The translations under genes were made by a program, and so were the position numbers. From positions 4,304 through 68,303 of the forward strand of contig CAWAEN010000004.1 of the NCBI GenBank assembly GCA_963781035.1: a stretch of DNA of 64,000 nt, written 5' to 3'. How positions within the stretch are numbered: the stretch's first letter is position 1; each line of letters opens with the position of its first letter. This document shows positions 1 through 38,723 of the stretch, one piece after another. Below the pieces are notes generated by a model. That model made no database searches. It saw only the letters and a program-made list of their open reading frames with translations, and had not been told where the DNA came from. This DNA is from an uncultured Acidimicrobiia bacterium. Its GTDB lineage: Bacteria; Actinomycetota; Acidimicrobiia; Acidimicrobiales; SZUA-35.

Positions 1-457
1 AGCGAGATAGTCGACCCCGGCTTGGATCTGATCGAGCTTCTTCTCGATCCCGGCCATCTGCTGTTGAACGGCGACGCCGCTCATCAGACTTGGCAGACTG
101 GTGGCGACTGCGGCGCCCGGCTTGAGGAACTTGAGCTGGTGGACGATCTTCCCGTCGGCATCCCTCAGCACGCCGAGAATGGCCCCACCGGTCTCGATCG
201 GGTCGTAGTTGGCGAGCATCCGCCTTGACTCTTCGGTGAGGTGGAGCACAGCGCCGGTTGCGCTCTGTGATCGCGATCAGGGGGCCTGACGCTGCGAGGG
301 CCGCTTGGACTGCCCTCACGAAGGGTTTCGGAATCAGTTCAGTCACATTGCCGAGCAGCTCGAGGGCCGACGTGTCACCAAAGGCGACGAGATCGCCTGT
401 AGCCAAACGCGCAACATAAACGGGCAGGACTTCTGGGTTCTTCCGCAGTTTTCGCAA
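1..457 (-). CDS. hypothetical protein, 5' part (gene runs off the window start); paralog of 24556..25833; apparent frame change near 265-285
   Basis: Absent from the ORF track because there is no stop in the window. Minus-strand reading from TTG at 457 (GAGAGG 5 nt upstream) gives LRKLRKNPEVLPVYVARLATGDLVAFGDTSALELLGNV. Below about 270 the protein-like, GC3-rich frame is VLHLTEESRRMLANYDPIETGGAILGVLRDADGKIVHQLKFLKPG...QQQMAGIEKKLDQIQAGVDYLA. This aligns by eye with IRHTPSSRLLLEQHGAIPAGGGSFRSMVHDGRGIAGNLDW...VEVAVERVEDKVDHVI of the ORF at 24556. Confidence 0.4.
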   Translation of the reverse strand, partial: MRKLRKNPEVLPVYVARLATGDLVAFGDTSALELLGNVTELIPKPFVRAVQAALAASGPLIAITERNRRCAPPHRRVKADARQLRPDRDRWGHSRRAEGCRREDRPPAQVPQAGRRSRHQSAKSDERRRRSTADGRDREEARSDPSRGRLSR

Positions 458-653
458 GGCAACCTCTCAATCTGTACATCGGTCGGTCACCACAAAGCTG
501 GAGAGCTCCCCGGATTCTTTGGCTGATGGTCGAGGCGATGGAACGCTTTCATCAGGCACTCGACCCTTTCGTCCGCAAGCTCGACTTCTCAGTGGAGTAG
601 GACGCGAGCCGCCTTCGGGGTGTGATGGGTATGGCTGGTCTGTTGGTCAGCGG

Positions 654-2337
654 TCACCGTCGCCGGGAGTGGGCGAGTTCGTCCCAATAGGCGTCGCGGT
701 CGCCGAGTCGCTCGCTGCGAGGCTTCGCCCGCCAGTTGGCGGTGGCGTGTGAGAGTTCGCTGTACATCTGTCGGACCCCGTCGGCGTCGGCGGCGACGTT
801 GCGGCCGGCCGTGCGGGCCATGCCGAGCCCGTGGGCGACATCGAATGCATCCTGGTTGGCGCCGAGGAACACGAACGTCCAGCCGCGATCGCGTAGCCGG
901 CCGATACGGCGGTTGATCGTGCGACCGTCAGTCTTGGATGCGTTCTCGTGGCCATCGGTGAAGATGACGACGAGTTGGTCGGCGTCGTGTGCCCCGGAGC
1001 TCTCGGCAACGTCGAGGAGGCGGTCGATGGCGTCGTAGAGCGGGGTCATGCCCCGGGGTTCGAACCGGCCTGCCATGGTCGGGACCTCTCGCGAGCGGCC
1101 GTCGGTCGACCAGGACGTCGTGGAGGTCCTGGTCGTCGAACTGGACCACGGTGCACGTGAGGTCGGCGCCGGAGGTGCGCTGATCGGCGAAGAAGGCGTC
1201 GAAGCCTCCCTCGACGTCGTCGCGGATCGAATACATCGAGCTGGACCGATCGAGCAGGAACCACAGGTGCGGTTCCCCCTTGGTCCCGGAATCATCCGAC
1301 CCGTTGTCCGGTCGGGCCGCCGATTCGGTTGCGGTGGCTCGTAGGTCTCGAGCGGAGCGGGCGAGACGGCCGGAGCGTTCGGCATGGCTCCAGTGCTCGG
1401 GGATCCACCCGGTGCCGTGGGCGGCGCCGAGGATGCCGCCACCGATCGCGGCGATGGTGTCGCTGTCACCGTCAACGGTGGCCAGCGCGGCCAATGCCAT
1501 CACGGGGTCGTCGATGTGGGTGAGGACGCAGCACAAGACCGAAAGGGTGGACGGCAGCGAAGGATGGAGGCCGAGGCGCTCGAGCGCATCGTGGTCGAGG
1601 GGTGCGGCCAGCCCGGCCTCGAGGTGGTCTCGGATCAGACCGTCGGTGTGAGCGACTGCTTCGCGGATCACGGAGGCGACGGTCGCCGTGGATGGGCGTG
1701 TGGCGAGCATCACGGCGGTATCGGCGAGGAACGCGGCACCTGCGGTGGCCAGGGGAGTGGCGTGGGTGACCGCGGCATCGACGGCTGCGGCGAGCGTGCG
1801 TGCCTCGGGGTCGTTGGCGAACGCGATGGCCGGAGCGAACGCTCGGGTCGCGGCGCCGTTGCCGTAGGAGGCGACGCCGGCCTCGAACCAGGGTGTCCCA
1901 TTGCGCCGGTTCTGGACTGTGGCGAGCACGGCTCGCCCCGGGGTTCGCAGACGGGAGGCCCGTCGGACGATTGCGTCGCTGAGAAGAATCGGCGCCTCCC
2001 ACCCCGCAGTGGACCAGGCGCGGGCGGACTGGAGGGCGAGCTGGGCTTCGGCGAGGGTGCGCCGTGCCGGACCCTCGAGGCGGTGCCGGCGCCGGTCTTG
2101 GGCCCGGTCCATCCAGTCAGAATCGGAGTGGTCGTCTCCGGCGCGGCTTGGGGCGGTCGGGACGTCGGCCCGTCCCAGGGCGTTGCCGACGGCGATGCCG
2201 ACGAGCATGCCGACGGCCCGGTCGTCGGGGAGGACGCCTGCGGCGTCGCTGTGTCGGAGGGGGAGGAGGCCTCGAGCGCTGAGGCTGAGGATGGCGTCGT
2301 GTCCGATGGCGGACTGGAGATCGTCGAGTGCGGTCAT
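654..2337 (-). CDS. ADP-ribosylglycohydrolase (ARH/DraG-like) fused to a C-terminal vWA (MIDAS) domain; frame broken once near 1085-1092
   Basis: ORF 928..2394 read from the internal ATG at 2337 (GAAGGA upstream). ARH-like segments are GMLVGIAVGNALG and DSDTIAAIGGGILGAAHGTGWIPEHW, followed by HLWFLLDRSSSMYSIRDDV (DxSxS MIDAS). The continuation EVPTMAGRFEPRGMTPLYDAI...VVIFTDGHENASK...FVFLGANQDAF lies in the ORF 654..1475 frame (one extra nt). The vWA half is colinear with the stand-alone vWA at 6738..7415. Confidence 0.75.
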
Positions 2338-2381
2338 GATGAATCCTTCGGTTAAGGTCAATATGACAATAAGGGGCAAGA

Positions 2382-2408
2382 CTGTATTTGTCAAATTGAC
2401 AAGAACAG
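2382..2408. promoter_or_regulatory. candidate operator: perfect 15-bp palindrome TTGTCAAATTGACAA (2388..2402) with extended CTGT/ACAG arms, in the AT-rich divergent promoter region
   Basis: Read directly from the sequence. The 76-109 bp spacer between the ARH-vWA start (2337) and the Nudix regulator start (2414 or 2447) is strikingly AT-rich for this genome. A second weaker site, GTCAATATGAC (GTCA/TGAC arms), lies at 2357..2367. Confidence 0.5.
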
Positions 2409-2446
2409 GTACAGTGGATCCGTGCCCACCGACCGACCCGGCCCCG

Positions 2447-3169
2447 ATGTGTCGAACGAGTACGACCCGTCCGCGTTACCCGACCTTCGCCGTGACCGTC
2501 GACATCGTGCTGCTGACCGTCACCGATGGGACCCTCCAGGTCCTCCTCATCAAGCGTGCGGGCGAGCCCTTCCTCGGAGCGTGGGCGCTACCGGGCGGGT
2601 TCAAGACCCCTCACGAGACACTCGATCAGGCCGCCGCCCGCGAGCTCGAGGAGGAAACCGGCGTCGCCGCTCCGGCTCACCTGAAACAGCTGGGTACCTA
2701 CGGTGACCCCGGCCGCGATCCCCGCATGAACGTGGTCACCGTCGCATACACGGCCGTCGTGCCCGTGGCCGCTGCGACATCCGCAGGCACCGACGCGGCC
2801 GAAGCCGAGTGGTGGCCCGTCTCCTCGATCCAGTCCGAGTCACCGGCGCTGGCGTTCGACCACCGCACCCTCGTGCTCGATGCCGTCGAGCGGGCCCGGA
2901 CCGACCTCGAACACACGAACCTGGTGAGCGCCTTCGTCGGGCCGGCATTCACCCTCTCCGAGCTCCAGCAGATCTACGAGGCGGTATGGGGCGAGCACCT
3001 CGATGCGGCCAACTTCCGTCGCGCCCTCAGGGCCAAGGACGAAAGCACCTGGGTCAAGGGCACCGGCCGCCGGCGCCAGAGTCAGAGCGGCGGTGGCCGA
3101 CCAGCCGAGGAGTACGAGCTCGGCGAAGGCTGGGAGAGCGAGCCGCCACCAGTCAGCCGCCCCCGCTGA
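2447..3169 (+). CDS. nrtR: NrtR-family Nudix-related transcriptional regulator (Nudix domain plus C-terminal winged helix)
   Basis: Frame of ORF 1901..3169, starting at ATG 2447 (GTG 2414 is also in frame). The Nudix box GGFKTPHETLDQAAARELEEETGV is intact (Gx5Ex7REUxEExGU). The C-terminal FTLSELQQIYEAVWGEHLDAANFRRAL matches the NrtR-type DNA-binding domain as I remember it. Confidence 0.7.
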   Translation: MCRTSTTRPRYPTFAVTVDIVLLTVTDGTLQVLLIKRAGEPFLGAWALPGGFKTPHETLDQAAARELEEETGVAAPAHLKQLGTYGDPGRDPRMNVVTVAYTAVVPVAAATSAGTDAAEAEWWPVSSIQSESPALAFDHRTLVLDAVERARTDLEHTNLVSAFVGPAFTLSELQQIYEAVWGEHLDAANFRRALRAKDESTWVKGTGRRRQSQSGGGRPAEEYELGEGWESEPPPVSRPR

Positions 3170-5349
3170 ACCGACGCTCCATTGGGAGGCCGGCCGGGGC
3201 CGGCGGGCCGAGTGAGTAGCGACGTATGAGTTCGCTCTGATCGTCGACGCCGAGCACGGCGATCACCCGCTCCGGGGTCATCGTCGTGAATCTGTCGAGA
3301 TCGATCATCGCTGCCGTCTCGCGCCAGCGGCGGTGCATGGACTGGTGACCGGCGGGGGCGGTCAGAGCGACGAGGCATTCATCGAGCTCGCCTGCCTCCT
3401 CCAGGGCGGCGGCAAGGGCGGCGAGGCGCATCGGCTGATTTCGGTGCCGGAACCAACAGCCGGAAGACACCTCGCTGTCGGCACTGGCCGCTGTCGACGT
3501 CGAGATGTGCAGGACCTCGTCGTACCTGCGGCGTTCACCGTTCTCGCGGTTGCGAAGCTGCCAGCACCGGTCGCTGTCGTTGCCGAACGGCCCGTTCTGG
3601 GAGCAGATCTGCCGGCTCTCGGGAGGCGCGGCTTCGGCGTGGGAACAACCGCCGAAACCGGTCTCGGTGAGTTTGACCTCGACGAGCACTCCGACGGATC
3701 GTCGATCGAGGGTGGTGCCGCGGAGGAAGACGTCGACCTGAGTCTTGAACGGACGCGTGGTGGTGGCTTCTCGGAGATGATCGTTGGGGTCGCTCCACTC
3801 GAAGGCAGGCAGTTGCACCGTCCGCATCGAGCCGAACAGCGGTGTGAGAAGGGCTCGGACACCGTCTTCGTCGAGCGGGCCGAACAGGTTGAGGGCGAAC
3901 CGCTGGGAGCTGTGGGCTGCGCCGACGAAGGCGTGCAGGTCGCCCGCGGCGGCGACCTGTTCTGCTGCGCCGGCCGCGTTCGAGAGCAGGCCTGCGAGGG
4001 GGCCGATGTCTTGTGCGTCGGTGGGTGGTGTGAGCTGCGCTGCCGATCGAGTGTGGGCCCGCATGCGATCGACGAAACGAGCTTGGGCATTGGTCGTTCG
4101 GCGATCGAGCACGCGGAAACGCACGTCGTTTCCGAGACCCAGCTCGGCACGGTAGACGCGGAGTGGTACCGATCGAGCCAGATGATCGGCGATGTGGCGA
4201 TTCTTGCGCTGCAGCATCGCTCCTTCGCCGGCGGGGAGGATCACGACCGCCAGGCCCGTTTGGAGCGTGCGGTCCGCGCCCAGCTCCTCGGCGAGCCGCT
4301 CCCGGTTGGCCTCGGCCCAGATCCAGTAGTCGAGTGCCTGGAGCAGAACGGTGGGCTCGGAGCCGCCGACCTTCGTCTCGACGATGTGAAGCCTGCTGTC
4401 ACCGTCGACCCCGAGGAAGTCGATCGATCCGGCGGCCTGTCGCGAAGGCCCCGCCCGTTCCGCCGGGTATTCAGGGACGAGGACCTCGAGACCGAGACGA
4501 TGTGTCGGTGGTATCGACAACATGCGAGCCTGGAAGCGGTGTTCGACGTGTGAATCATCGCTGCCGGCAAGACGGTTGCTGATTGCCTGACGCACCGCAG
4601 CGCGGATCGGTTCGGGGGTCTTGAGCGGACCACCGAGCTCGACCTTGATGCCGCTCCGTTTCGGCGACTTCGAACCCGGCCGGACTCCGGCTTCGACACG
4701 AACCCTGTTGCCCCTGGCTCGGGAAATCTTCAGCACGAGCCGACCGTCGGCTTGCCAGCCGAGATATCCCGGACCGGTGGCTCGAGATGAGGTGCGGATG
4801 ACCGTCGGCCCAAGGGATGACTTCGTCGAGCCAGCCCTGATGTTCTGCGGAGAGCTCGTAATGGCCGGATGCCATCTCGCTCGATCGGAGCCAGTCGAGG
4901 ACCTCGGATCGCGTCGGGATCGGGTGTTCGGTGACAACCGATTTGTTGTGGGTGAAGACCCGACAGTGTTGTTCGATCCACGGGAGCCTGACGAGAAACG
5001 ACCAGTGAGTCTTCTCGGGAACCACGATCACGAGATCTCGCTCTCCGACATGCTCCAAGGAGTAGGCGAGGGCGAGTTCGATGTGCTTTGCCGGCTCGTG
5101 CCCCCCGACGACCACGACGAGCTCATCCTCGGTGGCGAAGAGGACGGTCCGCAACGACACCTGAGTGTTGGGTCGATGGGCGGCGACCAGGCGATGGGGA
5201 AGAGCAGCTTCGGCCAGTCCTGGGGCCGCGAAGCGTGCGAAGTCGTATCGAGCTCGGTGGACACTGCCTTCGACTCCAGCCGAGGCGTGGGGATCACCGA
5301 AACGCCACTGCATCCATTCCGTCGGATGATCCGGTTCGCCCACGCTCAT
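3153..5349 (-). CDS. large (~730 aa) protein with two restriction-endonuclease-like (PD-(D/E)xK) motifs; frame broken once near 4781-4790
   Basis: ATG at 5349 opens the last 264 aa of ORF 4555..6600 (MSVGEPDHPTEW...GHPHLISSHR). The protein continues in the ORF 3153..4937 frame (ATGPGYLGWQADGRLVLK...). Nuclease-like motifs are SHVEHRFQARML...SIDFLGVDGDSRLHIVETKVG (D..ExK) and RSVGVLVEVKLTETGFGGC. I recognise no other domain. Confidence 0.6.
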
Positions 5350-5436
5350 GCTTCGAAGGTAGTCGAGTGCCGTGACAGGGGTTCCGCCTGACACCGCCTG
5401 CTTGACGCGACGCCAGGATCCTGATCCGATCCACCG

Positions 5437-6172
5437 ATGCCGAGCCGAACCGATGACACCGCACGCGTGCTCACGTGGAATCTCGAGCGCAAGCGGCCCG
5501 ACTCGGAGCTCGGCGCGCTGGGTGTCGATCGCCTCTTCGGTCACCAGCCCGACGTCATGGCGCTCACCGAGGTCCGCACCTCGTTCCCCGGTCGGCACGG
5601 GCCATGGCCTGTGGTGCGAGCCGCCGACCGGCGACTGGTTCGCCGAGGATGAGCGCGAGGTCATGATCTGGTCGTCGCAACCCTGGCGCGACGTCGATCG
5701 CGTCGGCATCGATGGACTGGACCAGACCCGGTTCATCTCGGCGACCACCGACACGCCGATCGGGCCACTACGAGTGCTCGGAGTCTGCATTCCCTGGCAC
5801 ATGGCCGAAGTCCAGTACCCCATCGACGTCAAGCGCAGGCCGTGGGAGCTGCACATCCGCTTCCTCGAGCGACTGGCGGAGCTGCTCGCCGCCTCCGACG
5901 TGCCGACGGTCGTCGCCGGCGACTTCAACCAACAGGTCCCTCGCATCAAGTACGGAAACCGGGAGGCAGCCGAGGCCATGGCCGAGGCCTTCCGAACGTT
6001 CGACATCGTGACGCAAGGCCAGCTCGACGGGTGTTCACGTCCCGGCATCGACCACGTCGCCATCAGCTCCCACCTGCAGGCTGCAGCAACATGGGGCTGG
6101 CCCAACATGTCCGAGGGACGACGACTGTCCGACCACGACGGCGCCGCGGTCGACCTCGTCAGCCTGTCGTAG
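5437..6172 (+). CDS. endonuclease/exonuclease/phosphatase (EEP) family protein; frame broken once near 5590-5600
   Basis: The N-terminus lies in ORF 5437..5652 (ARVLTWNLERKRPD...DVMALTEVR). The rest lies in the ORF 5372..6172 frame (PLRVLGVCIPWH, VVAGDFNQ, GIDHVAISSHL, RLSDHDGAAVDL). These match the conserved EEP catalytic motifs. Confidence 0.7.
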
Positions 6173-6273
6173 CTGCGGCTGCCGTTCACCCAGTTGTCAC
6201 AGCAACTGCCCACAGCGCAGGTGAGGGAGAACGGTTCTCCCACGGCGACCACGGAGAGAGGATCGAACAGAGC

Positions 6274-6663
6274 ATGTGGCCTTGGCAGCGCCCAGTGAGT
6301 ATCGAAGCCATCAAGGAAGCAGCCGACTGCTCGACACGCGGGCTCAACGTCTGGATCAACGCCTTGATCTCTCACGGACTTCGGCCGGTCGACGACCAGA
6401 TCCCGCTCTCCCACGCAGTGGCCGTCGGTGCCGCTTTGCACTTTCGATCGAACGGTGTGAGCAAGGCTCGGGCTGATCGGATCTTCAGGCAGCTCTTGCG
6501 CGACCCACCTGACTACGTCGGTTGGGTCCTCGTCGATCACCGGGACCGCTATCCGATCGACCTCGAGCTCCCGCCCATCTCGATCTCCTTGAAGTATCAC
6601 GCTCGCAAGGCACCGATCGTCTTCGATCCGACGCCCTTCATCGAACGGCTCGGCATCGACTGA
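6274..6663 (+). CDS. hypothetical protein (129 aa) with a possible N-terminal helix-turn-helix
   Basis: Internal ATG of ORF 5842..6663; the upstream part of that ORF is Arg/Pro-rich shadow. SIEAIKEAADCSTRGLNVWINALISHGL looks HTH-like. No family recognised. Confidence 0.5.
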   Translation: MWPWQRPVSIEAIKEAADCSTRGLNVWINALISHGLRPVDDQIPLSHAVAVGAALHFRSNGVSKARADRIFRQLLRDPPDYVGWVLVDHRDRYPIDLELPPISISLKYHARKAPIVFDPTPFIERLGID

Positions 6664-6737
6664 CCTCAGCCGGCGTTGCTGTCACGGCTGCGCTCTACAA
6701 GGAGGGTGAGAAGCAACCAACGGCGAGGAGCCCGGCC

Positions 6738-7415
6738 ATGAACGAGAACAAGAAGACAGAGAACGACAGCGCCACCAACGACGTCGTGCACGCACAAATC
6801 GTGCTCGACCGATCGGGCAGCATGACGCCCATCGCGTTCGCGACGATCGACGCACTGAACGGCTTCCTCGCCAAGCAGCGAGTCCTGCCTGGCGTGCTTC
6901 GGGTGACCCTTGCCGACTTCGACAGCCAGGAACCCTTCCGGATCGTCACCGATGCCATCCCCGTGGCAGAGATGGTCGATCTCACCCCGTCCGACTACGA
7001 GCCTCGCGGCGCAACGCCGCTGTTCGATGCGATCGGCCTGGCCGTCGAACGCTGCGACGCACGGGTCAAAGCTGATCCTGATGAAGACCAGGTGCTCGTG
7101 ATCATCACCGACGGTCTCGAGAACGCCAGCACCGACTTCGACGGCCCCAAGATCGCCGCCCTCCTCGAGGCGCGGCAGGAAGCCGGCTGGGCCGTGCTGT
7201 TCCTCGGCGCCAACCAAGACAGCTTCGCCACAGGCCAGGGCATGCAGATGCGGGGCGGCAACGTTCGCAACTTCGCTGCCAGTGATGCGGGCATCCACGA
7301 CGCACTGTCCAAGGCGAGTGACGCAATCATCGATCACCGCACGACCGCCCGCAGTGAACGACGGCTCCTGAAGGACGAACTCTTCGACCGAACCGACCCG
7401 TCAGGCTCACGATGA
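6738..7415 (+). CDS. stand-alone vWA (von Willebrand factor A, MIDAS) domain protein
   Basis: ATG at 6738 with GAGGAG 7 nt upstream. Motifs are VLDRSGSM (DxSxS), VLVIITDGLENAS and AVLFLGANQDSF. It is colinear with the vWA half of 654..2337, and both end with an ...ARSER... tail. Confidence 0.8.
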   Translation: MNENKKTENDSATNDVVHAQIVLDRSGSMTPIAFATIDALNGFLAKQRVLPGVLRVTLADFDSQEPFRIVTDAIPVAEMVDLTPSDYEPRGATPLFDAIGLAVERCDARVKADPDEDQVLVIITDGLENASTDFDGPKIAALLEARQEAGWAVLFLGANQDSFATGQGMQMRGGNVRNFAASDAGIHDALSKASDAIIDHRTTARSERRLLKDELFDRTDPSGSR

Positions 7416-7461
7416 CGGGCACGGGAGTTCACAGGTTCGGTCGACATGACAAGCTGGTCCC

Positions 7462-8136
7462 ATGACTGACGAGGCTCCGCAACTCTCCGACCGCATGACG
7501 GCAGCGTTCGACATGGCCCGCGAAGTGCACAACGGTCAGGCGCTCAAGGAGACCGACCTGCCCTACCTGCTGCACCTCCTCGACGCGTGTTCCATCGCCC
7601 TCCGCCACGGCGCCGACGAGGAGGTCGCCATCGCAACGCTTCTCCACGATGTCGTCGAAGACGGCGGCGGCGAAAGGAAGGCCGACGAAATCGGCGCCGC
7701 CTTCGGCGAACGGGTGAAGCAGATCGTCCTGGACTGTTCTGACAGCCTCGTCGAGGACCCGGCTGGCAAGCCGCCTTGGTGGGATCGCAAGATCCAATAC
7801 CTCGATCACCTGCACCTCGCCACAGAAGACACGGCCATGGTGTCGGCTGCCGACAAGCTCTCGAACGCTCGATCGATCGTGGCGGATGTCACCGAACACG
7901 GTGATGCGTTCTGGAAGAGGTTCACGACCGGCCGGGTGGGGTCGCTCTGGTACTACCGCCGCATCGCCGAGATCCTCCCGAGCCGTCTGCCGGAGACCGA
8001 CCGAGCCCAGCGGCTCGGCCGATCGTTGGAGGCCGCGGTGGCGGACATGTTCAAGTTGGTGAGTGTCGACCAAGCCAAGGCCGACTGGCACGCCGCCTTT
8101 GCCGAGGAGCAACGGGTTCGGGAATCCCTCGGCTGA
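7462..8136 (+). CDS. HD-domain metal-dependent phosphohydrolase (RelA/SpoT-type hydrolase domain only)
   Basis: Intact 224-aa ORF. LLHLLDACSIALRHG...ATLLHDVVEDGG gives the H..HD site, and SAADKLSNARS is also present. There is no synthetase domain. Confidence 0.8.
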   Translation: MTDEAPQLSDRMTAAFDMAREVHNGQALKETDLPYLLHLLDACSIALRHGADEEVAIATLLHDVVEDGGGERKADEIGAAFGERVKQIVLDCSDSLVEDPAGKPPWWDRKIQYLDHLHLATEDTAMVSAADKLSNARSIVADVTEHGDAFWKRFTTGRVGSLWYYRRIAEILPSRLPETDRAQRLGRSLEAAVADMFKLVSVDQAKADWHAAFAEEQRVRESLG

Positions 8137-8265
8137 GCGCCGAGTTGCCAGCTCACAACTGCCCCTGCAACCACCCTCAGCGAGCACTGTCACACCCCGT
8201 GGTCATGCTGGTTCTTGTCTCGCCGCCCGATTGTCCGGGCGGCCCAGGAACCAGGAGGTCGTGAC

Positions 8266-9079
8266 ATGGAAGCGACTCGCCGCAAGATGCTCGAGGAGGT
8301 GATGCGTCGATTGATCGAGGGTGAGCTCGCCATGGTGTGGGCCCTGTCCACCGAGTTCGGTGAGGACCTCGCCCGAGTGATCCGTCGCCACCTCCGCTCG
8401 ATGGGCCGCTCGGAGGTGATCACCGAGCCCGGCCGGGTCGAAGGCCTCGTGATCGACGTTGCGCTCTGGTTCCTCGACCACGGAACCGCATACGACCCTT
8501 CGGCTTCGTTGCCCTGGGTGTGGGCCGACAAGCCGATTCGCTCGCTCGTGGCGGCCGAGATCGGCCATCGCACGGTCGAGTTCGAGCCGGCACTGGCCGA
8601 GGGCGAGGCGCCGTCGCTCGATCCGGCCGTCGTCGAGCTTCGATCCCTGGCCGATCGTGAACCCGACGGTCGCCCTGCTGATCGAAGCCGCCGAGGAGGT
8701 CGGCTCCGCCCGCGACGCCGGCGTCCATCTCGAGTACCGAGTGCAGCTCGCACTCGGGGATCCGAGCCCATCGCATACGGTTGCCGACATGGTCGGACTG
8801 CAAGCGGCGAACATTCGCCAGATCGACACCCGGATGCGCAAGAAGGTGGCTCGCCTGGTCGATGTCGATCGACCGCTTCGGTCCGTTGAAGGAATTGGCA
8901 TGGCTGAAGTGAGCGCTCCGATCGGCACCACCGACGAGTCCCGTCGCCATCTTCTCGAGCAGTTCGCAGAGCGGCTGAACCGTCGAGGCATCAAACGCCC
9001 CGATGTTTCCGCCGTTGTGTCTGCTGCTCGAGCAGAAGCCTTCCTCGCCGAGTTCGAAGCCGACAACGAGCCGGGCTGA
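8266..9079 (+). CDS. sigma-70/ECF-like HTH protein; frame broken once near 8660-8670
   Basis: ATG at 8266 with AGGAGG 7 nt upstream. The ORF 8215..8889 frame is used to about 8664 (VIDVALWFLDHG, WVWADKPIRSLV). The ORF 8459..9079 frame follows (PTVALLIEAAEEVGSARD...SHTVADMVGLQAANIRQIDTRMRKKVARL, a region-4-like HTH). Confidence 0.5.
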
Positions 9080-9171
9080 TCTGGTCGCGATCTCGGCGGG
9101 CCCGCCGGTCAGAAACCGATCCCCGGTGCCGTCGCGGGACTTGTGGCGGCAGGCGCTCGGGATCTCCGGCG

Positions 9172-10467
9172 CTATCCGGCGTCTCGGACGAGGCGGATGA
9201 AGTTGTAGTAGCGCTCGCCGCCTTCGCCGTCGGGTCCGTCCTCGGTCTTGGTGTCGAAACGGACCGCGCCGGCACCGTGGGAGTCCTCGCCGCTGCCGTC
9301 GACGGCTCGGCCGAACGCGACGTACCAGGCGTAGTAGTAGGGCTCGCCGCCTGCTGAACTGTGCCGAGGTGCTGGACCAGTAGTAGCCGTAGTCGCTGTC
9401 GCCGGCTTCGTTGGTGATCTCGGTGGCGGAGAACAGCTCGTCGATGGCCGGTCCGACCGCGGAGGCGTCGGTGGCCGAGGGGGATCGGGAGTAGTCGACG
9501 ATGCTCTGCAGCTCCTTCACGTTCGGCAGCCGCCAGTCGGTGAAACCGGCCAGCTCGGAGTCCTCCGCGTAGGCCAACGCGTCTTGCCAGTCGAGTTCGA
9601 CACCGTCATCGTCTTGCGCCCACATGAGGCCGGTGGCGCTGTCGGTGATCGTGCCGTCGCCGTTGTCGACGAGGTCGTTGATGCCGTACTCGTCGCCTCG
9701 GACCACCCGCACGTAGTTGCCGCCGGCGGGGCCGCGGGCCACGGCTGGGTAGGCCTTGATGTGGCCGGTGACGTGGTTGACGCCGAACGCAGCTTCCGAA
9801 CCGCCCTCGGTCGTGGTGCCGACGTAGTAGTTGCTGGTCCAGTACTGCTCGTCCTTGGTGACCTCGCCGCTGGCCAGGGTGAAGTACGTCGGTGTCGAGA
9901 TAGGGCCAGCTGAGACCGAAGTCGCTGATCGTGAACAGCTCCTTGGCCGATGGCAGTCGCCAATCGTCGTAGCCGGCGAGCTCGAGCTCGTCGGCGTAGT
10001 CGACGGCCTCCTGCCAGGTGAAGCCATCCGAGGACGGAACCTGCTGCCAGGTCAATCCGGTGTTGGGGTCGGTGACGGTTCCGTCACCGTTGTCCTCGAA
10101 CGACATCGCCGACCCGGCCAAGTAGTCGGCGTCCTGGCCGTACAAGTCTTCACCGTCGGCCGGCACAGGTCATCTCCTCACCGTCGACGTCGTAACAAGC
10201 CGTCTGTCCGGTGGCGACAACCACAGACGTGGACGCTGCCCCGGTGTCGGTGTCGGTGTCGGAGCCGGTGTCCGCGCTGGACTGCGTCGTTTCGACCTCG
10301 GTTGCGTCGGCTGCGGTGTCGGTGTCATCGGACCCGCACACGCTCGCCACCAGCGCCATGACCGCGACGGCGACGAGCCAACGCCGCGCGGGACGTGGTC
10401 GAGTCGGTGTGACCGGCGAAGCGTTGTCGGTCGTTGATGGAGTTGGGGATTTCCGGGAGTAGGTCAT
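9172..10467 (-). pseudogene. secreted/lipo-protein with two DUF1566-like (Lcl C-terminal) domains; at least 3 frame breaks (about 10160, 9890, 9350)
   Basis: The signal-peptide part is ORF 10150..10467 (RRWLVAVAVMALVASVCGS...TGQTACYDVDGEEMTC). Next comes ORF 9606..10166 (FEDNGDGTVTDPNTGLTWQQ...AGYDDWRLPSAKEL). Then the ORF 8420..10027 frame (DNGDGTITDSATGLMWAQ...AGFTDWRLPNVKELQS). The Met-less tail GEPYYYAWYVAFGRAVDG...YYNFIRLVRDAG ends at the TAG at 9172. Confidence 0.7.
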
Positions 10468-11615: not shown

Positions 11616-11779
11616 GTCGGTTTCCTCCGATGTGTAGGGCGTCGATCACTACTTCGTCTGTCAGCGCAATTTGGATGCGCTTCGACGTTGTTCCATGCGT
11701 GACATGCGGCATGAAGGCAAGCCGCCTCCGTAGGACCTTGTCCTCTGACTGATTGCTGCCCGTAGACGACCATGCAGAC

Positions 11780-13906
11780 ATGGCCACTGCCTTCAGAACC
11801 TGGCTTTTTCCCATGGTTCTCTTGGTCGCGCTGGGGTTGGGCATCCTGACCGGCTGCGTCAACGACGACGACGGTGCGGAGACCACGTCACTCCCGGCAA
11901 CCACCGAGCCCTCCACCCCAGCCACCAGCCCACCTACGTTGGTCGAGCCGGCCTTCGGGAGTACAGAAGTTCAGACGTCTTCGGTCCTGCCGCTCCTGCG
12001 AATGGAGTGGACATCGGTCGACCTCGAGGCTCCCGAAACCGACGGCTGGTTGCTGGGATTGACCACGCTCGGCGAGGAGTTCGTTGCCGTCGGCTCGAGT
12101 TGGACTGCGGGTGAATCCGCATTCGCACCGGGCACCCAGACCGTCAGGCAGTGGCGCTCATCCGATGGCCTCAGCTGGGATCTCGCCGATACGAAATCCA
12201 TCGACGGCTGGATGGACAGAATCGTGGTGGTCGATGACCACCTCCTCGCCATGGGAAGCAGAACGGATGAATCAGGGCGTGCTCTTCCGATGATCTGGAT
12301 CGACGACGGCTCGGGATGGGTGGAGACCGAGGTTGGTTGGTCCGGCGACGAGTCGCAGTCTCTCTACTTGTCCGCCGTGGCGTCGACACCGGCCGGTGTC
12401 GTGATGGCCGGCAACGTCCAACCGTTCTATCGAAACGACCCGATGGTGTTGTCGGTCGGTGGGTTCCGCATCGTGATCGACGACTTCGACGGCACCTACG
12501 TGGTCACCGAGGATGCCACGCAACGCACGGTCGCCGAAGGGTCGATCAGCGACATCTACCGGTGGAGCGAAGAAGGCCAACTCCTGTTCGACAACGACAC
12601 CGGTGACATCCTCACAACGGTGCCGTGGGAGGTGTGGGACGACCTCTACCCGGCTTCTTCACCACTGCCGATCTACTTCCCCACCCCTCCCGGCGACGAC
12701 ATCGGCTCGATCGAATGGGACGGCTATCGAGTCACGGTCGAGGGTCTTGTCGACGGGTACGAGCTCGGCACCTATGCGATCACCGATCTCGATACCGGCC
12801 GAGTGATCGCCGGACCACTCGACGAGCTCTACCGAGGGCCGGGCCCACGCTTCTTCGATCGAGCCACAGGCGAACTGGCGCTGGCCTTTGATTGGGACGA
12901 ATGGGATCGACTCACCAACGAGTGGTGGGAAGCCTCCTACGAGCCCCATGAGCCTCACGACGCCGAGGTTGTCGTGCTCTTCAGCGACGACCTCACCGCT
13001 GATCCGCCCATCTGGCGACAACAGACGTTGGCCTTGTCACCGGACAGCCACCTCGAGTCGTTGGTGGCGGTGGACGACCACTTCGTCGCCACGGTGCAAG
13101 AACACTACGAGTACTTGGGCAACCGGATCGCCTTCGTATCCGACGACGGGGTGACGTGGGAGCAGGCCGTGAGCCGGGGTGCGGACTACCTCCATCAGCT
13201 CGTGCCGACGTCGGATGGTGTGATGGCGTTGTCCAGCGGCGAGCAGGGGTCGATCGGCGGTGTTCCTCCAGCGACGGGCTCATCTGGCACGACGAGCTCT
13301 CGATCGGGCCCCAGAGCGACGGCAGTGATGCCTGGCTCGAGCTGATGGGTGCCGGCCCGATGGGCACCGTCGTCACCGCCGTTGTTCACGGACGGATATG
13401 AGCCTCAGGTACTGGAGATCACGGTCGACGAACTCACCGCTCGTTTCGGTGAACAGTTCGCGGTGGAGATCGTCGACTCGACCGGCGAGACGCGCCTGAC
13501 CCTCACCTGGGAAGAACTCGAGCAGCCCACCCCCGGAGATCAGAACTGGGCGACCTACACCGACGGCGCGACCCACTTCTGGAATGCCGAAGGCGAACTG
13601 GTGATGACCATTCCCGACGAGACCGTGTGGGCCGCCTATGAAGACCAGTCGGCTGGCGCCGGCGAGGAACCCCAGACTGCGGTGTTCATCCGGCTCGAAG
13701 GAGGCGCGTGGTTCGAAACGACCCCGCCCACAACCATCGAGCCAGGCTCCAATCAGATCGTGACGCTCGGAGTCGACAAGGTCGTCATCGCACGGACGGT
13801 CTTCGATGACACCGGAACGCGGTACGAGGAGGAAGGCGAGTTCGCCGGTCACATCGAGTTCCTCGTCGGCACCGTGACCGAGAAACCGAGCCAAGACCAA
13901 TCGTGA
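11780..13906 (+). CDS. lipoprotein with BNR/Asp-box-like repeats; 2 frame breaks (about 13255-13265 and 13385-13395)
   Basis: ATG at 11780: MATAFRTWLFPMVLLVALGLGILTGC (lipobox). Asp-box-like SSDGLSWD, SDDGVTWEQ and SSDGLIWHD are present. The protein continues through the ORF 13156..13401 frame into ORF 13349..13906. Confidence 0.65.
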
Positions 13907-14854
13907 CTGAGTGGCAAGAATTCCCCTGGCCGGCGCCGTCCACCGATCAGCGTCTCGATCGCCTCTGCGTCGAAACCACCGACCCGCTGCGCCCGGACTG
14001 CCGGATCGAAGGAGCGAACTTCATCTCGACGCCGGCGCCGCCGGGAGACGAGGTCGTCGTGTGCGCCTACAACGTCGAGCGAGGGCTACGTCTGGATGAC
14101 CAGCTGGAAGCGTCTCGCCGGCGCCTCTGGCATGCCCTCACCCGACATCCTCCTGCTCAGCGAAGCCGACCGCGGATGCACGCGCAGCGATGGACGCAAC
14201 GTTGCTCGGGCCTACGCAGAGCGGCTGGGCATGTGTTACGTCTACGGCGTCGAGTTCGTCGAGTTGCCGCGGGTGTGGGGACCGGGCGGCGCCATCCGTC
14301 ATCGCTGCGAACACGGCAACGCAATCATTTCGCGTTACCCGCTCGGCAACGTCCGGGTGATCCGCCACCGGGAAACCCGCAGCTGGAACAGCGCGACGCA
14401 GCGCATGCTTCGGCTCGGTCAACCCCGCCACGGCGGGCGTGTCGCCGTGGCGGCCGACGTGCGGATCGGTGACCGGACCCTCCGCGTCTACGCGGTGCAC
14501 TTCGAGTCCGGCCGGCCGGCCGATCGCGACACGATTCGTGAGGCCCAGGCCAGGGAACTGCTGGCCGACGCCGCGGGGGTGAGCTCAGGAGTGGTCATCG
14601 GTGGCGACATGAACGTCGTTCGATACACGGGATCGGCCGAGAGTGACCCGACCGTGGGCGCACTGCTCGCCGATGGTTTCCACGATGCCCACGTCGCACT
14701 CGCGCCGAGCGAACGGATCACCACGGACTCGGGAGTCGTCATCGACCTGATCGTCGGTCGCAGCATGCAGATCATCGATGCCGGTGTCGGTCCTCGAGCG
14801 ACATGGCACGACCTGTCCGACCACCTCCCGGTCTGGGCCCGCTTCCGATGGTGA
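13903..14854 (+). CDS. endonuclease/exonuclease/phosphatase (EEP) family protein; frame broken once near 14110-14120
   Basis: The GTG at 13903 overlaps the upstream stop (GTGA). The N-terminus VVVCAYNVERG lies in ORF 13903..14472. The rest lies in ORF 14096..14854 (ILLLSEADRGC, GNAIISRYPL, VYAVHFES, VIGGDMN, LSDHLPVWARF). Confidence 0.75.
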
Positions 14855-14876
14855 GCGCCGCCCCGGCGGGGCCGCC

Positions 14877-15770
14877 ATGAGCGCCGAACAAAGCCTGACA
14901 CGGGTTCGCACCAACGTGATGCTGTGGCTGTTCGTTGTGGTGTTCGCCCGGCTCTACACGGTCGTGCTCTGCCACGTGCCACGGCTCGTATTCGATTCCG
15001 ATCCGGTCTGCGACACCTGGTTCCGGGGTATTGCGGGCTATCTCTGGGTGGAGCTGGTCTTCTACGGCCCGGTCATGTGGTTCGCCCTCCACCAGATCAG
15101 CTCCGACGTGTTCGGCGACGTGCCGACCGAGGCCCGAGCACTGCAGCTTCACCGTCGCCGACATCTGGTGGCAGAGGCAGCGATCGCTGTCCTCTTCTAT
15201 GGCATCGGCGTTCATGTCGCCGACACGGTCGAGGTGTTCTCGCGGCTGAGCGAGGGTGTGACCGATGGTCCGATCTACGAGCTCGTCTACTTCATCGACG
15301 AGGGGGTGTCGCACTACATCCAGTTCGTCTCGCTGATCTTCGTCCTCGGGTGGATCGTGATCTTCGATCGACGGGGCCGGACCGCCCATTCCTCGCTGGC
15401 CCTGTTCCTGGGTACTGCGCACGGCCTCGAGCGGAGCGTCGGCATCATCGAAGGCGAGAAGTGGTTCATCGGGCCGGCGGTCATGGCCTGGATGGCGGCC
15501 GCCGTCGTGCTTCGATGGCGGCGTGTCGGGTCGGAGGCGGTGACAGAGTTCTTCGTTCGCTACGCGGTGGCCTTCGTGGCGGTCGTCCCCATCGCGCAGG
15601 TGCTCTACTACGCGTGGCTCGGAAGTTTCACGCCGCCGTCGGAGCTGTCCGAGTCGGAATACGCCGAGCTGGCTGTCGGCATGATCATCCTGTCGGTGGT
15701 GGGGACGTCGGTCGCTCTGGCGGTCGATCGCTGGCGGCTGCTCAGGCGCCCCAGTACCGGGTCGGGTTGA
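14877..15770 (+). CDS. integral membrane protein, unknown function
   Basis: Internal ATG of ORF 14778..15770. Multiple hydrophobic helices are present (VMLWLFVVVFARLY, YLWVELVFYGPVMWF, FVSLIFVLGWIVIF, ...). Confidence 0.65.
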   Translation: MSAEQSLTRVRTNVMLWLFVVVFARLYTVVLCHVPRLVFDSDPVCDTWFRGIAGYLWVELVFYGPVMWFALHQISSDVFGDVPTEARALQLHRRRHLVAEAAIAVLFYGIGVHVADTVEVFSRLSEGVTDGPIYELVYFIDEGVSHYIQFVSLIFVLGWIVIFDRRGRTAHSSLALFLGTAHGLERSVGIIEGEKWFIGPAVMAWMAAAVVLRWRRVGSEAVTEFFVRYAVAFVAVVPIAQVLYYAWLGSFTPPSELSESEYAELAVGMIILSVVGTSVALAVDRWRLLRRPSTGSG

Positions 15771-15821
15771 CGGACACCGGCGCCGGATCGGGCCCTTCGG
15801 ACGGATCCGGATCATCCCCGC

Positions 15822-17216
15822 GTGACTATGGTGACCCGGGTGCCCGACGCTGACGCTCCTGCATCCGCTGAGGGTTGGACCAGTCGCTCGGGGTTCATTC
15901 TCGCCACCATCGGATCCGCGGTCGGGGTCGGCAGCATCTGGAAGTTCCCGTACGAGGTGGGGGCCAACGGCGGTGGCGCATTCGTGCTGGTGTACATGCT
16001 CGGCCTCGTGTTGGTGGTCGTGCCACTCATGCTCGCCGAGTTCGCCATCGGCCATCGGGGGCAGGCCGACGCTGCCACCAGCATGGAAATCGTTGCCGGC
16101 GAAGAGTCGGCCTCGACTCGGTGGCGTGTGTTCGGACTCTTGGGGGCGGTCACCGCGTTCCTCATCCTCAGCTTCTACGCAGTGGTCGGCGGATGGACCC
16201 TGACCTACGCGTACGACACGCTGGTCGACGGCCTGCCCGGGGGCGCCGGCGAGGCGAGCGGCGGCTTCGATGATCTCCTGGCCTCGCCCGGGCGGATGAT
16301 GCTCTTCCAGGCTTTGTTCCTCGGACTCGTCGCCGCTGTCGTGGTTCGTGGTGTGCAGAACGGCATCGAGTCGGCCATGAAGATCCTCATGCCCCTCATG
16401 GCTCTGCTGCTCACCGCCATCGCCATCTACTCAATGCGCAACGGCGCCGCCTCGGCGACCCTTCGTTTCCTCTTCGTCCCCGATTTCGACGACCTGACCG
16501 GTCGTGGAGTGCTCGACGCCCTGGGGCTGGGCTTCTTCTCGATCGGGGTGGGGCTGGGCATCCTCCTCACCTACGCGGCGTACAGCCCACCCGGCGTCGA
16601 CCTCAAGACGGTGGCCATCGCGTCGGTCGCGGCCGACACCGTGATCTCGTTCGTGGCCGGGCTCGCGGTCTTCCCGGTGGTCTTCGCCAACAACCTGGAC
16701 GCTGCCAGCGGACCTGGTCTCGTGTTCGAGACGCTGCCGGTGGCGTTCGGGGTCATGCCGGCGGGCCGTTCGGTCGCAGTGGCGTTCTTCGCCCTGCTCG
16801 CCATGGCCGCACTCGGCTCGGCCATTTCCATGCTCGAGGCGGTGGTGGCCGTGCTCGACCGCCGCCTCGGCTGGTCGCGACACAAGTCAGTCGGCGTGGC
16901 CGCCACCTCCTGCTTCGTCGCCGGCATGGCAACCGTGGCGTCGTTCAACGTCTGGAGTGACGTTCACCCGTTCAGCTGGATGGAGCGCTATGAGAACGCG
17001 ACCATCTACGACCTCCTCGACGACGCCACGTCGCAGCTCATGCTGCCCGCCGGCGGATTGGCCATCGCCGTGTTCACCGGATGGGTCCTGTCCGACCGGC
17101 TGCTGCGCGACGAGCTCGGCCTGCGGGGCGTCCCCCTCGTCGCCCTGCGCTGGACGCTGCGGGTGGTTGCTCCCGTGACCATCACGGCCGCGGCCGTCGT
17201 GTCCCTCCTCGGCTGA
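15822..17216 (+). CDS. sodium-dependent transporter, neurotransmitter:sodium symporter (NSS/SNF) family
   Basis: Intact 464-aa ORF. RSGFILATIGSAVGVGSIWKFPYEVGANGGGAFVLVY is the NSS signature region, and about 11-12 TM helices follow. Confidence 0.9.
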   Translation: MTMVTRVPDADAPASAEGWTSRSGFILATIGSAVGVGSIWKFPYEVGANGGGAFVLVYMLGLVLVVVPLMLAEFAIGHRGQADAATSMEIVAGEESASTRWRVFGLLGAVTAFLILSFYAVVGGWTLTYAYDTLVDGLPGGAGEASGGFDDLLASPGRMMLFQALFLGLVAAVVVRGVQNGIESAMKILMPLMALLLTAIAIYSMRNGAASATLRFLFVPDFDDLTGRGVLDALGLGFFSIGVGLGILLTYAAYSPPGVDLKTVAIASVAADTVISFVAGLAVFPVVFANNLDAASGPGLVFETLPVAFGVMPAGRSVAVAFFALLAMAALGSAISMLEAVVAVLDRRLGWSRHKSVGVAATSCFVAGMATVASFNVWSDVHPFSWMERYENATIYDLLDDATSQLMLPAGGLAIAVFTGWVLSDRLLRDELGLRGVPLVALRWTLRVVAPVTITAAAVVSLLG

Positions 17217-19186: not shown

Positions 19187-19258
19187 TCTGACGCCTTTGT
19201 GAGGCTCGGAGCCCCCGATACGAGGCGTCCGCCGCCGGTGTCGTAGAGTCCGGCGCAG

Positions 19259-19597
19259 ATGTTGCTGGTCGTGTGTTCGCTCGTTTCCAGCGCCTCATTC
19301 TTCTTTTACGGGTTCGAGACCCTCACGAAGGAACGACTGCGAGCGGAATACCGGCGCTACGGCATGCCGGGCCTGCGAACGTTCGCCGGAACGATGCAGG
19401 TACTCGGCGCGGCCGGTGTGCTCATCGGTCTGGGGTTCGCACCCCTGGGAGCGACCGCCGCCGGTGGTCTGGCCCTGATGATGTTCCTCGGGCTGCTCGT
19501 CCGGCTCAGCATCGGTGATGCGTTGCGACTGATGATTCCGGCAGCCTCGCTCTGCGTGATCAACACCGTTCTGTTGGTGCTGTTCCTCCTGCGCTGA
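19259..19597 (+). CDS. DoxX-like family membrane protein
   Basis: Intact 112-aa ORF with 4 helices. FFFYGFETLTKERLRAEYRRYGMPGLRTFAGTMQVLGAAGVLIG is typical of the DoxX-like family. Confidence 0.7.
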   Translation: MLLVVCSLVSSASFFFYGFETLTKERLRAEYRRYGMPGLRTFAGTMQVLGAAGVLIGLGFAPLGATAAGGLALMMFLGLLVRLSIGDALRLMIPAASLCVINTVLLVLFLLR

Positions 19598-37865: not shown

Positions 37866-37887
37866 CCAGGCCGGACACTACTGCCGA

Positions 37888-38085
37888 ATGAGGAAGCCGC
37901 CGAGGCCCTCCTGGCGCAGCGAGGCTCCGCTCCACGCAGAACTCGAAATCACCGAAGACGAGGAGCGTCGTGTCGAGATCGAGGCCAAACTCTCCGCCAT
38001 CTTGGAGCAGTGGGAGCTGGACCGTGGCATCGGCCGTGCGTCCGGACCCGCTGGGGTCCTGTGCGCCGACGAGCTCGTCAGGTGA
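37888..38085 (+). CDS. possible small ORF (65 aa), uncertain
   Basis: Tail of ORF 37759..38085, from ATG at 37888. It has by far the highest third-position G+C of the six frames here (AELEITEDEERRVEIEAKLSAILEQWELDRGIG). However, it starts only 22 bp from the divergent AfsR-like start and has no clear RBS. Confidence 0.3.
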   Translation: MRKPPRPSWRSEAPLHAELEITEDEERRVEIEAKLSAILEQWELDRGIGRASGPAGVLCADELVR

Positions 38086-38425: not shown

Positions 38426-38723
38426 GATCGGTGCTCCTTCGAGTCCTGGCAAGTGGCGGGAGCACCAGCTCCGATGAAGCGACCGTAGCGATGGCGTGTG
38501 ACAGACGGTCACACCGGTTGAGCGAGTCGGCCCAGTTCGCCGGCTACCGCGCCGATCCGCGACTGATGGTCGGTTCAGCCGTGAGGCGAACAGGCGATCA
38601 CGGCGAGCAGCGACACCGGTCTTGCCCATCAGGACCGTGAGGCGGAACGGTCAGCGAGCTGACGAGTGAGCTCGGCGGATGGCTCGAGAGTCGAGCGCGG
38701 AGCTCGTCTGAAGACGGCGACGG

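Follow-up and report, generated by a model that had tools for sequence, protein, structure and literature searches.

A stretch of 64,000 nucleotides from an uncultured Acidimicrobiia bacterium (assembly GCA_963781035.1, contig CAWAEN010000004.1, positions 4,304 to 68,303), referred to below as the window, was analysed with the focus on its left 9 kb. This part was found to contain a divergent gene pair, an NrtR-like regulator and a fusion of an ADP-ribosylglycohydrolase (ARG) domain with a vWA domain, and the pair was found to recur in about 40 genomes, mostly Acidimicrobiia. The neighbouring genes in the window code for a dual-nuclease protein, an endonuclease/exonuclease/phosphatase (EEP) protein, a second vWA protein, a small alarmone hydrolase (SAH) and a sigma-fold protein. 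The G+C content of the window is about 66% overall and raw lists of open reading frames (ORFs) were therefore crowded with spurious frames; the gene models were built from Pfam scans, three-frame translations and the mapping of intact homologs onto the window DNA. The features of the left 9 kb were as follows.

1–457, minus strand: 5′ part of an uncharacterised gene, from three-frame translation; leaves the window at its left end
654–2337, minus strand: ARG–vWA fusion of about 560 aa (Pfam ADP_ribosyl_GH and VWA)
2352–2372, no strand assigned: NrtR-type operator 2, TTATTGTCATATTGACCTTAA on the minus strand, 27.6 bits by position weight matrix
2385–2405, no strand assigned: NrtR-type operator 1, holding the perfect palindrome TTGTCAAATTGACAA at 2388–2402
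2447–3169, plus strand: NrtR-like regulator, Nudix domain and winged helix (Pfam, NCBIfam)
3153–5349, minus strand: dual-nuclease protein of about 730 aa (Pfam REase-ARP and PDDEXK_13)
5437–6172, plus strand: EEP protein (Pfam Exo_endo_phos after frame repair)
6274–6663, plus strand: small ORF of 129 aa (translation, coding score)
6738–7415, plus strand: stand-alone vWA paralog (Pfam; likeness to the vWA of ARG–vWA)
7462–8136, plus strand: SAH with an HD domain (Pfam HD_4; PDB 7qoe)
8266–8912, plus strand: sigma-fold protein of about 214 aa (homologs, frame map, AlphaFold2 (AF2) model and Foldseek)

The regulator was found to match Pfam NUDIX (1.4e-21) and NrtR_WHD (6.9e-13) with the Nudix box intact, in agreement with the preliminary description of this DNA, which had read it as a Nudix/winged-helix protein of the NrtR type. 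The best NCBIfam match was NF050029, 'ADPR responsive transcriptional repressor' (1.6e-39), at 136 bits against an equivalog cut-off of 400. The Nudix signature was intact in 34 of 42 loci.

The intergenic region between the regulator and ARG–vWA carries the palindrome exactly where it had been reported, at 2388–2402. The exact form TGTCA-N-TGACA was tried as a conserved operator and rejected, as it was not kept in other genomes; of the 37 homologous intergenic regions, 35 keep the looser GTC-N5-GAC core and 25 hold it two or more times. The density of this core was 7.3 per kb in these regions, compared with 0.66 per kb over the loci as wholes (11-fold enrichment), and the operator consensus was found to be TTATnGTCAnnnnGACnAnAA. 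A weight matrix from the homologous sites scored above 12 bits at just two places in the 64 kb, 2352–2372 and 2385–2405, and it also located operators upstream of three ARG–vWA/vWA loci in which a regulator was not detected. No operator was found in the 64-kb scan upstream of the nuclease, the EEP gene, the small ORF, the second vWA gene, the HD gene or the gene downstream of ARG–vWA. An ordinary NrtR regulon, with the palindrome elsewhere only upstream of NAD biosynthesis genes, had been raised earlier as a way in which the conflict reading could fail; the operator was conserved upstream of ARG–vWA or vWA genes in 35 of the 37 genomes, and no NAD biosynthesis or salvage gene was found beside the pair in the annotated contexts.

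An independent promoter scan of the region gave two promoter-like sites against 0.1 expected. The ARG–vWA promoter contains a −35 box TTGACA at 2394–2389 and a −10 box TATTGT ending at 2366, and the nrtR promoter contains a −35 box TTGTCA at 2388–2393 and a −10 box TACAGT ending at 2415. Operator 1 spans the −35 boxes of both divergent promoters and operator 2 overlaps the −10 box of the ARG–vWA promoter, and the predicted layout is therefore that of an autoregulated repressor.

Outside the Acidimicrobiia, the pair was found in Mycolicibacterium, Gordonia, Chloroflexota and a deltaproteobacterium. All annotated contexts of ARG–vWA homologs had the NrtR-like gene divergently upstream, at a distance of 90–100 bp. 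It was found to adjoin 22 of 24 full-length ARG–vWA loci in GTDB genomes, and 19 loci in which a vWA of this family stands alone; the two full-length loci without an adjacent NrtR-like gene still bear operators. A divergently adjacent NrtR-like gene, beside either ARG–vWA or vWA, was found in 42 loci. In ten Acidimicrobiales metagenome-assembled genomes (MAGs; loci L004, L011, L012, L018, L021, L022, L028, L030, L033 and L037), the pair lies in conserved flanks, with TetR, an MFS transporter and a wax-ester synthase on one side and an AMP-binding enzyme on the other, and it is stably inherited in this clade.

The other genes of the window did not show this linkage. Homologs of the restriction endonuclease (REase)-like dual nuclease, the EEP protein, the HD protein, the small ORF and the downstream gene were found in none of 82 other ARG–vWA/vWA loci within about 7 kb (tblastn, phmmer and a family hidden Markov model). 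A recurrent accessory gene was also sought by clustering all flanking ORFs, from which only clade-specific chromosomal synteny emerged, and the small genes that follow ARG–vWA in other loci gave no Pfam match except a sub-threshold NYN hint in L004. Thus the synteny expected in the preliminary description was borne out for the NrtR/ARG–vWA pair, but not for the nuclease and the other neighbours. Likewise its theme of an ADP-ribose-linked conflict locus, with NrtR placed over ARG–vWA, was upheld for these two genes, while its grouping of about ten genes into one island was not, given the count of zero in 82 loci and the lack of operators.

The genes of the left 9 kb were found to be broken by at least six frameshifts, near 260, 1089, 4770, 5605, 8662 and 8880, by which five genes are hit. 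None of the sites is in a long homopolymer. The first falls within 255–262 in the downstream gene, the second inside the vWA domain of ARG–vWA; the nuclease gene is shifted near 4770, the EEP gene within 5602–5608 and the sigma-fold gene near 8662 and 8880. Repair of the frames restored the invariant residues, and the repaired proteins matched full-length profiles; the EEP protein went from a half-length Pfam match (1.3e-4) to residues 1–225 of 225 (1.7e-8), by which its earlier assignment was supported. To score the splitting of genes elsewhere, an intact ARG–vWA protein was mapped onto 80 GTDB loci, with one genome per GTDB species. The gene was split over two or three frames, at differing positions, in 14 of 17 loci from MAGs of long-read style (names of the 'MFD...' and contig_N type), whereas it was split in none of nine short-read assemblies (NODE_, k141_, Logan, JGI). 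The annotated fragments of the window (P0001 and P0126) share their NCBI plus ENA source tags with proteins from MAGs of the long-read style. Split genes were found outside the island too, at about 37 kb, at about 53 kb and at 9.3–10.2 kb. Because the same gene is split in long-read and not in short-read genomes, and because genes outside the island are split as well, the frameshifts are most likely consensus errors of a Nanopore long-read assembly, and the genes are therefore probably intact in the organism. The preliminary description had called for repaired frames in a cloning test; the need for repair is ascribed here to assembly error and not to biology.

Among the split genes outside the island, a part with Trans_reg_C and BTAD domains (37006–38109) and a part with AAA_22, NACHT and nSTAND1 domains (34976–37453, minus strand) overlap at 37.0–37.45 kb in different frames, and in all likelihood they are the pieces of a single large STAND regulator gene (34976–38109, minus strand) divided by a frameshift. 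An intact protein of 1294 aa in locus L090 contains Trans_reg_C, BTAD and nSTAND1 and also Bmp domains. A DUF1501 gene of the window covers just the latter half of its profile, and an Lcl_C/DUF1566 gene at about 9300–10170 (minus strand) gave matches in at least two frames, at 8423–10051 and 9609–10169.

The ARG–vWA fusion gave a Pfam ADP_ribosyl_GH match of 4.8e-27 at 654–2337, with the VWA domain found in a second frame. The fusion was thus real as described, though its architecture, which the preliminary description did not recognise, is common: the family was found to contain 89 clusters at 90% identity, with an intact length of 520–620 aa. The ARG family profile matches the structures of DraG, Tri1 and ARH3 at 1e-18 to 1e-24 (PDB 6dre 2.7e-24, PDB 2cwc 8e-23). 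Among 28 aligned ARG members, the Gly-rich loop S-[FY]-G-N-[GA]-A and the THA motif are nearly invariant, and these correspond to the GNGA and TH motifs of characterised ARH enzymes. The vicinal Asp pair of T-D-D was absent in all 28 relatives, and the window copy contains L-A-E at this place; the Glu after GDALG was present in 10 of the 28 and is not present in the window copy. The C-terminal D-x-D-T motif was complete in 8 of the 28, the window copy included. The MIDAS (metal ion-dependent adhesion site) residues of the vWA domain, DxSxS, T and D, did not vary in any of the 28 relatives.

The vicinal Asp pair is essential for activity in ARH1, ARH3 and DraG-type enzymes. Because it is absent here, much of the family is doubtful as a hydrolase and the window copy is an uncertain case, as judged from the motifs. 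ARH2 is a non-catalytic member of the ARH family, and the motif pattern of the ARG domain resembles such members. It is tentatively proposed that the ARG domain is a ligand-binding pseudoenzyme, by which ADP-ribose or ADP-ribosylated proteins would be sensed and handed over to the metal site of the vWA domain; this is a possibility that we rate as rather less than even. If so, the module would be a sensor or adaptor and not an eraser of ADP-ribosylation.

Genes for an Mrr_N protein, for an ARG joined to a dual-specificity phosphatase (ARG–DSPc), for a GIY-YIG nuclease and for a transposase flank the NrtR-like/ARG–vWA pair in locus L005 (7712–14309); the ARG–vWA of this locus is without DxDT, and the separate ARG–DSPc gene adjoins it. 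The IMG/VR loci L093–L172 are rich in the vWA family to which the fusion belongs (motifs TDGxEN and FLGANQD), with 256 relatives, including giant-virus MAGs and phage contigs of up to 430 kb. The viral contigs with vWA contained no ARG domain, and NrtR was represented by one weak partial match in the Nudix region only. A phage-borne module was considered and found no support, as vWA on the viral contigs was never accompanied by ARG or NrtR.

The dual nuclease (Pfam REase-ARP 2.3e-18, PDDEXK_13 1.4e-12) was found, in alignments of 12 and 40 relatives, to contain a conserved alpha/beta N-terminal domain, a beta-rich domain, a first PD-(D/E)xK domain and the REase-ARP domain, in this order. The first nuclease domain, which is RecB/Cas4-like, contains E288, D329, E343-x-K345 and Q356xxxY360, all invariant, and the second (REase-ARP) contains D558 and E576-x-K578 together with four conserved Cys. 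The two PD-(D/E)xK-like motifs noted earlier in a protein of about 730 aa are therefore both aligned with invariant catalytic residues. An AF2 model of the homolog P0005 (predicted local distance difference test, pLDDT, 85.5; predicted template modelling score, pTM, 0.76) gave Foldseek matches to SfsA (7e-4), Exo5, NucS/EndoMS, AdnAB and Shedu SduA, and weakly to the CARF-nucleases VC1899 and Card1. As a weaker addition to the sensor reading of the ARG domain, the nuclease could be a ligand-gated effector, its modelled N-terminal alpha/beta domain being faintly Card1/VC1899-like.

The nuclease family is rare, with 83 representatives reaching E ≤ 1e-30 in a set of 1.84 billion proteins. TY-Chap2 was found to be fused in 10 of 40 family members; the window copy is without it. 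The 3′ end of the nuclease gene overlaps the 3′ end of nrtR by 17 nt (3153–3169), and the window protein stops at a GGG that is aligned with the first TY-Chap2 residues of its four closest relatives, so that the end of the gene looks, by this alignment, like a recombination junction by which TY-Chap2 was removed. Five contexts of nuclease homologs were obtained, namely three defence islands (TerB/BrxCD-like plus Gabija-like; MmeI/SNF2/Vsr; AbiE/PIN/Mrr/PLD), one housekeeping context and one short contig with an EEP gene, and none of the five contained ARG or NrtR. In the window the EEP and nuclease genes diverge from each other, and the same arrangement was found in L089 beside the closest nuclease homolog, where the EEP protein is 27% identical to that of the window (5e-12). 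The divergent nuclease and EEP genes are read as a separate two-gene unit, with one other genome in support. A second EEP gene of the window, not close kin of the first, is present 8 kb away at 13907–14854 (plus strand; Exo_endo_phos 2e-9), and the ORFs beside it at 11753–13345, 13346–13906 and 14751–15770 gave no family or PADLOC match.

The uncharacterised gene reported downstream of ARG–vWA does exist, at 1–457 on the minus strand, with a probable start TTG at 457 after GAGAGG. It gave no Pfam match; over 143 aa it could be aligned, with 40% identity, to the N-terminal part of a protein of 529 aa in L088 (13851–15440), a defence island which holds both this homolog and a homolog of the REase. 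The small HTH-like protein of the preliminary description, probably the ORF at 6274–6663, gave no Pfam or other family match and no homolog in other loci, and its helix-turn-helix (HTH) status was not borne out. The stand-alone vWA paralog at 6738–7415 was recovered by Pfam as reported; it is 37–40% identical to the vWA of ARG–vWA, and tblastn to the vWA genes of other loci reaches 2e-51.

The HD protein was found to match Pfam HD_4 (5e-16), the spoT_relA N-terminal region of NCBIfam, PDB 7qoe (2.4e-37 over residues 5–173) and PDB 7qoc (5.5e-23), with a visible LLHDVVED motif. It is by these matches a predicted small alarmone hydrolase of the RelA/SpoT hydrolase type, as the earlier (p)ppGpp-hydrolase label had it. 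The SAH gene is 5 kb from the ARG gene, is without an operator, and was not found beside the core in other loci.

The sigma-like HTH protein was supported at the level of the fold only. No Pfam or NCBIfam match was obtained, and the AF2 model (pLDDT 83) shows a two-domain fold like that of the extracytoplasmic function (ECF) sigma factors. The Foldseek matches were led by AlgU, sigma-E, sigma-H, SigW and CnrH, and the top nine were all ECF sigma factors save sigma-32 at rank 4, although they were weak (E 0.08–0.3, template modelling score 0.24–0.43). The homologs are 65–86% identical and 214–220 aa long, with a C-terminus ...PLKELAWLK which corresponds to window positions 8883–8909; the end of the gene is therefore at 8912 and not at 9079, the longer ORF being a read-through caused by a frameshift. 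These close homologs stand alone in unrelated contexts. Distant paralogs were found to flank the NrtR-like/vWA pair in L042, L047, L048 and L051, with two paralogs each in the marine Actinomycetota MAG loci L042 (7322–11378), L048 (6484–10335) and L051 (7158–10825). A canonical ECF sigma factor with Sigma70_r2 and Sigma70_r4 is present at 60472–61032 (plus strand), in contrast to the Pfam-silent protein at 8266–8912.

The low-G+C stretches noted earlier are real but modest, at 55–56% (301–600 and 2301–2500) and 61–62% (6200–6900). The first two are intergenic or promoter DNA, and the 9-kb island as a whole has the G+C content of the window average. No tRNA or Rfam match that could serve as a landmark of an integrated element was found in the 64-kb window. 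An alternative genetic code was considered for same-frame abutting ORFs with good scores and rejected, as the stops at the junctions are ordinary gene ends. The PADLOC check proposed in the preliminary description was run with PADLOC-DB v2 on raw, repaired and intact proteins and no system was recognised; weak local matches to PDC-S07, PDC-S11 and PDC-S18 were seen at 1e-5 to 1e-6 over about 45 residues. Elsewhere in the window, an SNF-family transporter (15771–17216, plus strand) and a GGDEF–EAL protein (17231–19294, minus strand) are present. At 38700–42700 all six frames are open for hundreds of codons with G+C of about 0.65 at each codon position; in this region the coding scores are low, no tandem repeats were found, and the longest ORFs gave no Pfam or NCBIfam match.

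On this evidence the 9-kb stretch is judged to be, with fair though not full confidence, a mosaic with one conserved unit, the NrtR-like/ARG–vWA divergon, in which the neighbours are separate cargo and the frameshifts are most likely assembly errors. The nuclease and EEP genes, the second vWA gene, the SAH gene and the sigma-fold gene are read as separate cargo, probably of a variable neighbourhood resembling a defence island, because they are without an operator and are unlinked to the core elsewhere. By analogy with the NrtR family and with the systems predicted by Iyer et al. (2022), the repressor would shut off both nrtR and ARG–vWA in the resting state. Free ADP-ribose or a close derivative, which could arise from the consumption of NAD or from protein ADP-ribosylation, for example by a phage enzyme, would bind to the Nudix domain, and the repressor would leave the DNA. 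The ARG–vWA protein would then be made, and its ARG domain would bind ADP-ribosylated targets and perhaps strip ADP-ribose from them, with a partner or target protein held by the metal site of the vWA domain.

Several points weigh against this reading of the pair as a conserved ADP-ribose-responsive conflict unit. The loss of the Asp pair in all aligned relatives and the survival of DxDT in so few of them suggest that de-ADP-ribosylation may not be the activity of ARG–vWA. The stable syntenic context in one Acidimicrobiales clade fits a housekeeping function better than defence, and PADLOC recognised no system. The window begins inside the downstream gene, and so the full operon is not visible. 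The Nanopore origin of the assembly is deduced and was not read from a record. A full-text literature search for an experimental study of an ARG-centric system returned the 2022 prediction alone.

The strongest competing explanation is that the pair is a housekeeping or stress module, by which the cell's own ADP-ribosylation or its ADP-ribose/NAD turnover is handled, and not an anti-phage module; we hold this to be possible but not the likelier account. The nrtR-draG arrangement of Streptomyces has been assigned to endogenous ADP-ribosylation (PMC2330246), the flanks conserved in 9–10 related Acidimicrobiales species indicate vertical stability, the island has the G+C content of the genome background, and the silence of PADLOC speaks for it as well. 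Against these stand the surroundings of the pair elsewhere, where its neighbours include helicases, GIY-YIG and Mrr-type nucleases, a transposase and a DO-GTPase, and in the window, where it adjoins a defence-type nuclease. Nor did the neighbourhoods that were inspected show an ADP-ribosyltransferase as a partner. In the window, no Pfam match to an ADP-ribosyltransferase or a sirtuin was obtained among the genes identified in 1–9100, a view bounded on the left by the window edge.

The joining of all of the roughly ten genes into one conflict system, in which sensing by NrtR and ARG–vWA would license the nucleases and the HD protein as effectors, is considered unlikely. The genes are mutually adjacent; REases, alarmone-type HD phosphatases and vWA are frequent accessories of ARG in the part of PMC9503650 that deals with such systems; the nuclease domain bears the name REase-ARP and its relatives carry TY-Chap2, which was defined from ARG neighbourhoods; and the homolog of the downstream gene shares the L088 defence island with an REase homolog. 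However, none of these genes was beside the core in the 82 loci or preceded by an operator, the five contexts of REase homologs were without ARG and NrtR, and the nuclease gene, convergent with nrtR, stops at the point at which TY-Chap2 begins in its relatives, which suggests juxtaposition by rearrangement. A decaying remnant with real pseudogenising mutations, for which the density of frameshifts outside long homopolymers (at least six in 9 kb) would speak, is improbable in view of the splitting of ARG–vWA at differing positions in 14 of 17 long-read-style MAGs and in none of nine short-read assemblies, the further split genes at about 37 kb, about 53 kb and 9.3–10.2 kb, and the retention of all conserved residues and full-length profile matches in the repaired proteins.

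Under the mosaic reading with the divergon as its conserved unit, the locus offers a compact unit with one repressor, two mapped operators over defined promoter boxes and one effector gene. Host counter-measures to phage-driven ADP-ribosylation are almost unexplored, and ARG-centric systems are the sole candidates proposed. The degenerate hydrolase site, set beside the vWA site as the most constrained one, favours binding assays ahead of hydrolysis assays. The frameshifts, which gave the locus a damaged look, are a probable feature of long-read MAGs, and this matters for the mining of defence genes in such genomes.

Compared with known PD-(D/E)xK nucleases (RecB/Cas4/AddB-type, SfsA, Shedu SduA and Card1), the dual nuclease shares the D...ExK residues in both domains, QxxxY in the first and four conserved Cys in the second, and its family, like theirs, is found in defence islands. 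It differs in the presence of two nuclease domains per chain behind an uncharacterised alpha/beta N-terminal domain, and matched no PADLOC system. The ARG domain shares with DraG, Tri1, ARH1 and ARH3 the fold, the Gly-rich loop and THA, and in the window copy DxDT, whereas the Asp pair is replaced (A-E in the window), the Glu after GDALG is not conserved, and a vWA domain is fused.

NrtR regulons were described by Rodionov et al. 2008 (NAR; PMC2330246), with a 21-bp palindromic operator of GT-N7-AC core. They include nrtR-draG in Streptomyces (nrtR1), assigned to endogenous protein ADP-ribosylation, and nrtR<>nrtX-nrtY divergons (nrtR2) of unknown function. Regulons outside NAD metabolism (draG, pentose) were already known for the family. 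The present unit shares with them the Nudix domain and winged helix, a 21-bp GT-N7-AC operator between divergent genes and a target of the ARG/DraG type; it differs in that no NAD biosynthesis or salvage genes are present here, the target is an ARG–vWA fusion, and there are two operators per divergon. The arrangement of vWA and sigma-like genes in L042, L048 and L051 may be that of nrtR<>nrtX-nrtY.

The Pfam name REase-ARP ('Restriction Endonuclease associating with ARP') and the presence of TY-Chap2 in the relatives of the nuclease led to Iyer et al. 2022 (Viruses; PMC9503650, section 3.8), in which ARG-centric systems were predicted to counter viral ADP-ribosylation. According to that section, such systems occur in actinobacteria and further lineages and contain an ARG without a coupled transferase and a repressor of the Nudix- or WYL-HTH kind, together with peptide-binding chaperones (vWA, SseB, TY-Chap1-3) and variable effectors including a fast-evolving REase; phosphatases (rhodanese-phosphatase, calcineurin-like, alarmone-type HD or HAD) are present in about 55% of systems. 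The window resembles this account in its actinobacterial origin, in its ADP_ribosyl_GH protein, for which no coupled ADP-ribosyltransferase was detected, in the Nudix-HTH repressor divergent from it, in the vWA domain fused to ARG, in an alarmone-type HD gene and a fast-evolving REase nearby, and in the pattern of a conserved core with variable accessories. It differs in that only the regulator and ARG–vWA are demonstrably linked here, that genes for a rhodanese-phosphatase, Macro, NADAR or ARPP were not found here, and that the ARG is without the di-Asp motif, a point not raised in section 3.8. Set against that section, the statement of the preliminary description that the set matches no named system does not hold for the core, and the core pair fits the predicted ARG-centric class. 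The class itself was known from the 2022 prediction, and the regulator type and operator core from 2008; to these the present analysis adds the operator and promoter map, the non-linkage of the accessory genes, the diagnosis of the frameshifts as artefacts and the degenerate active site of the ARG domain.

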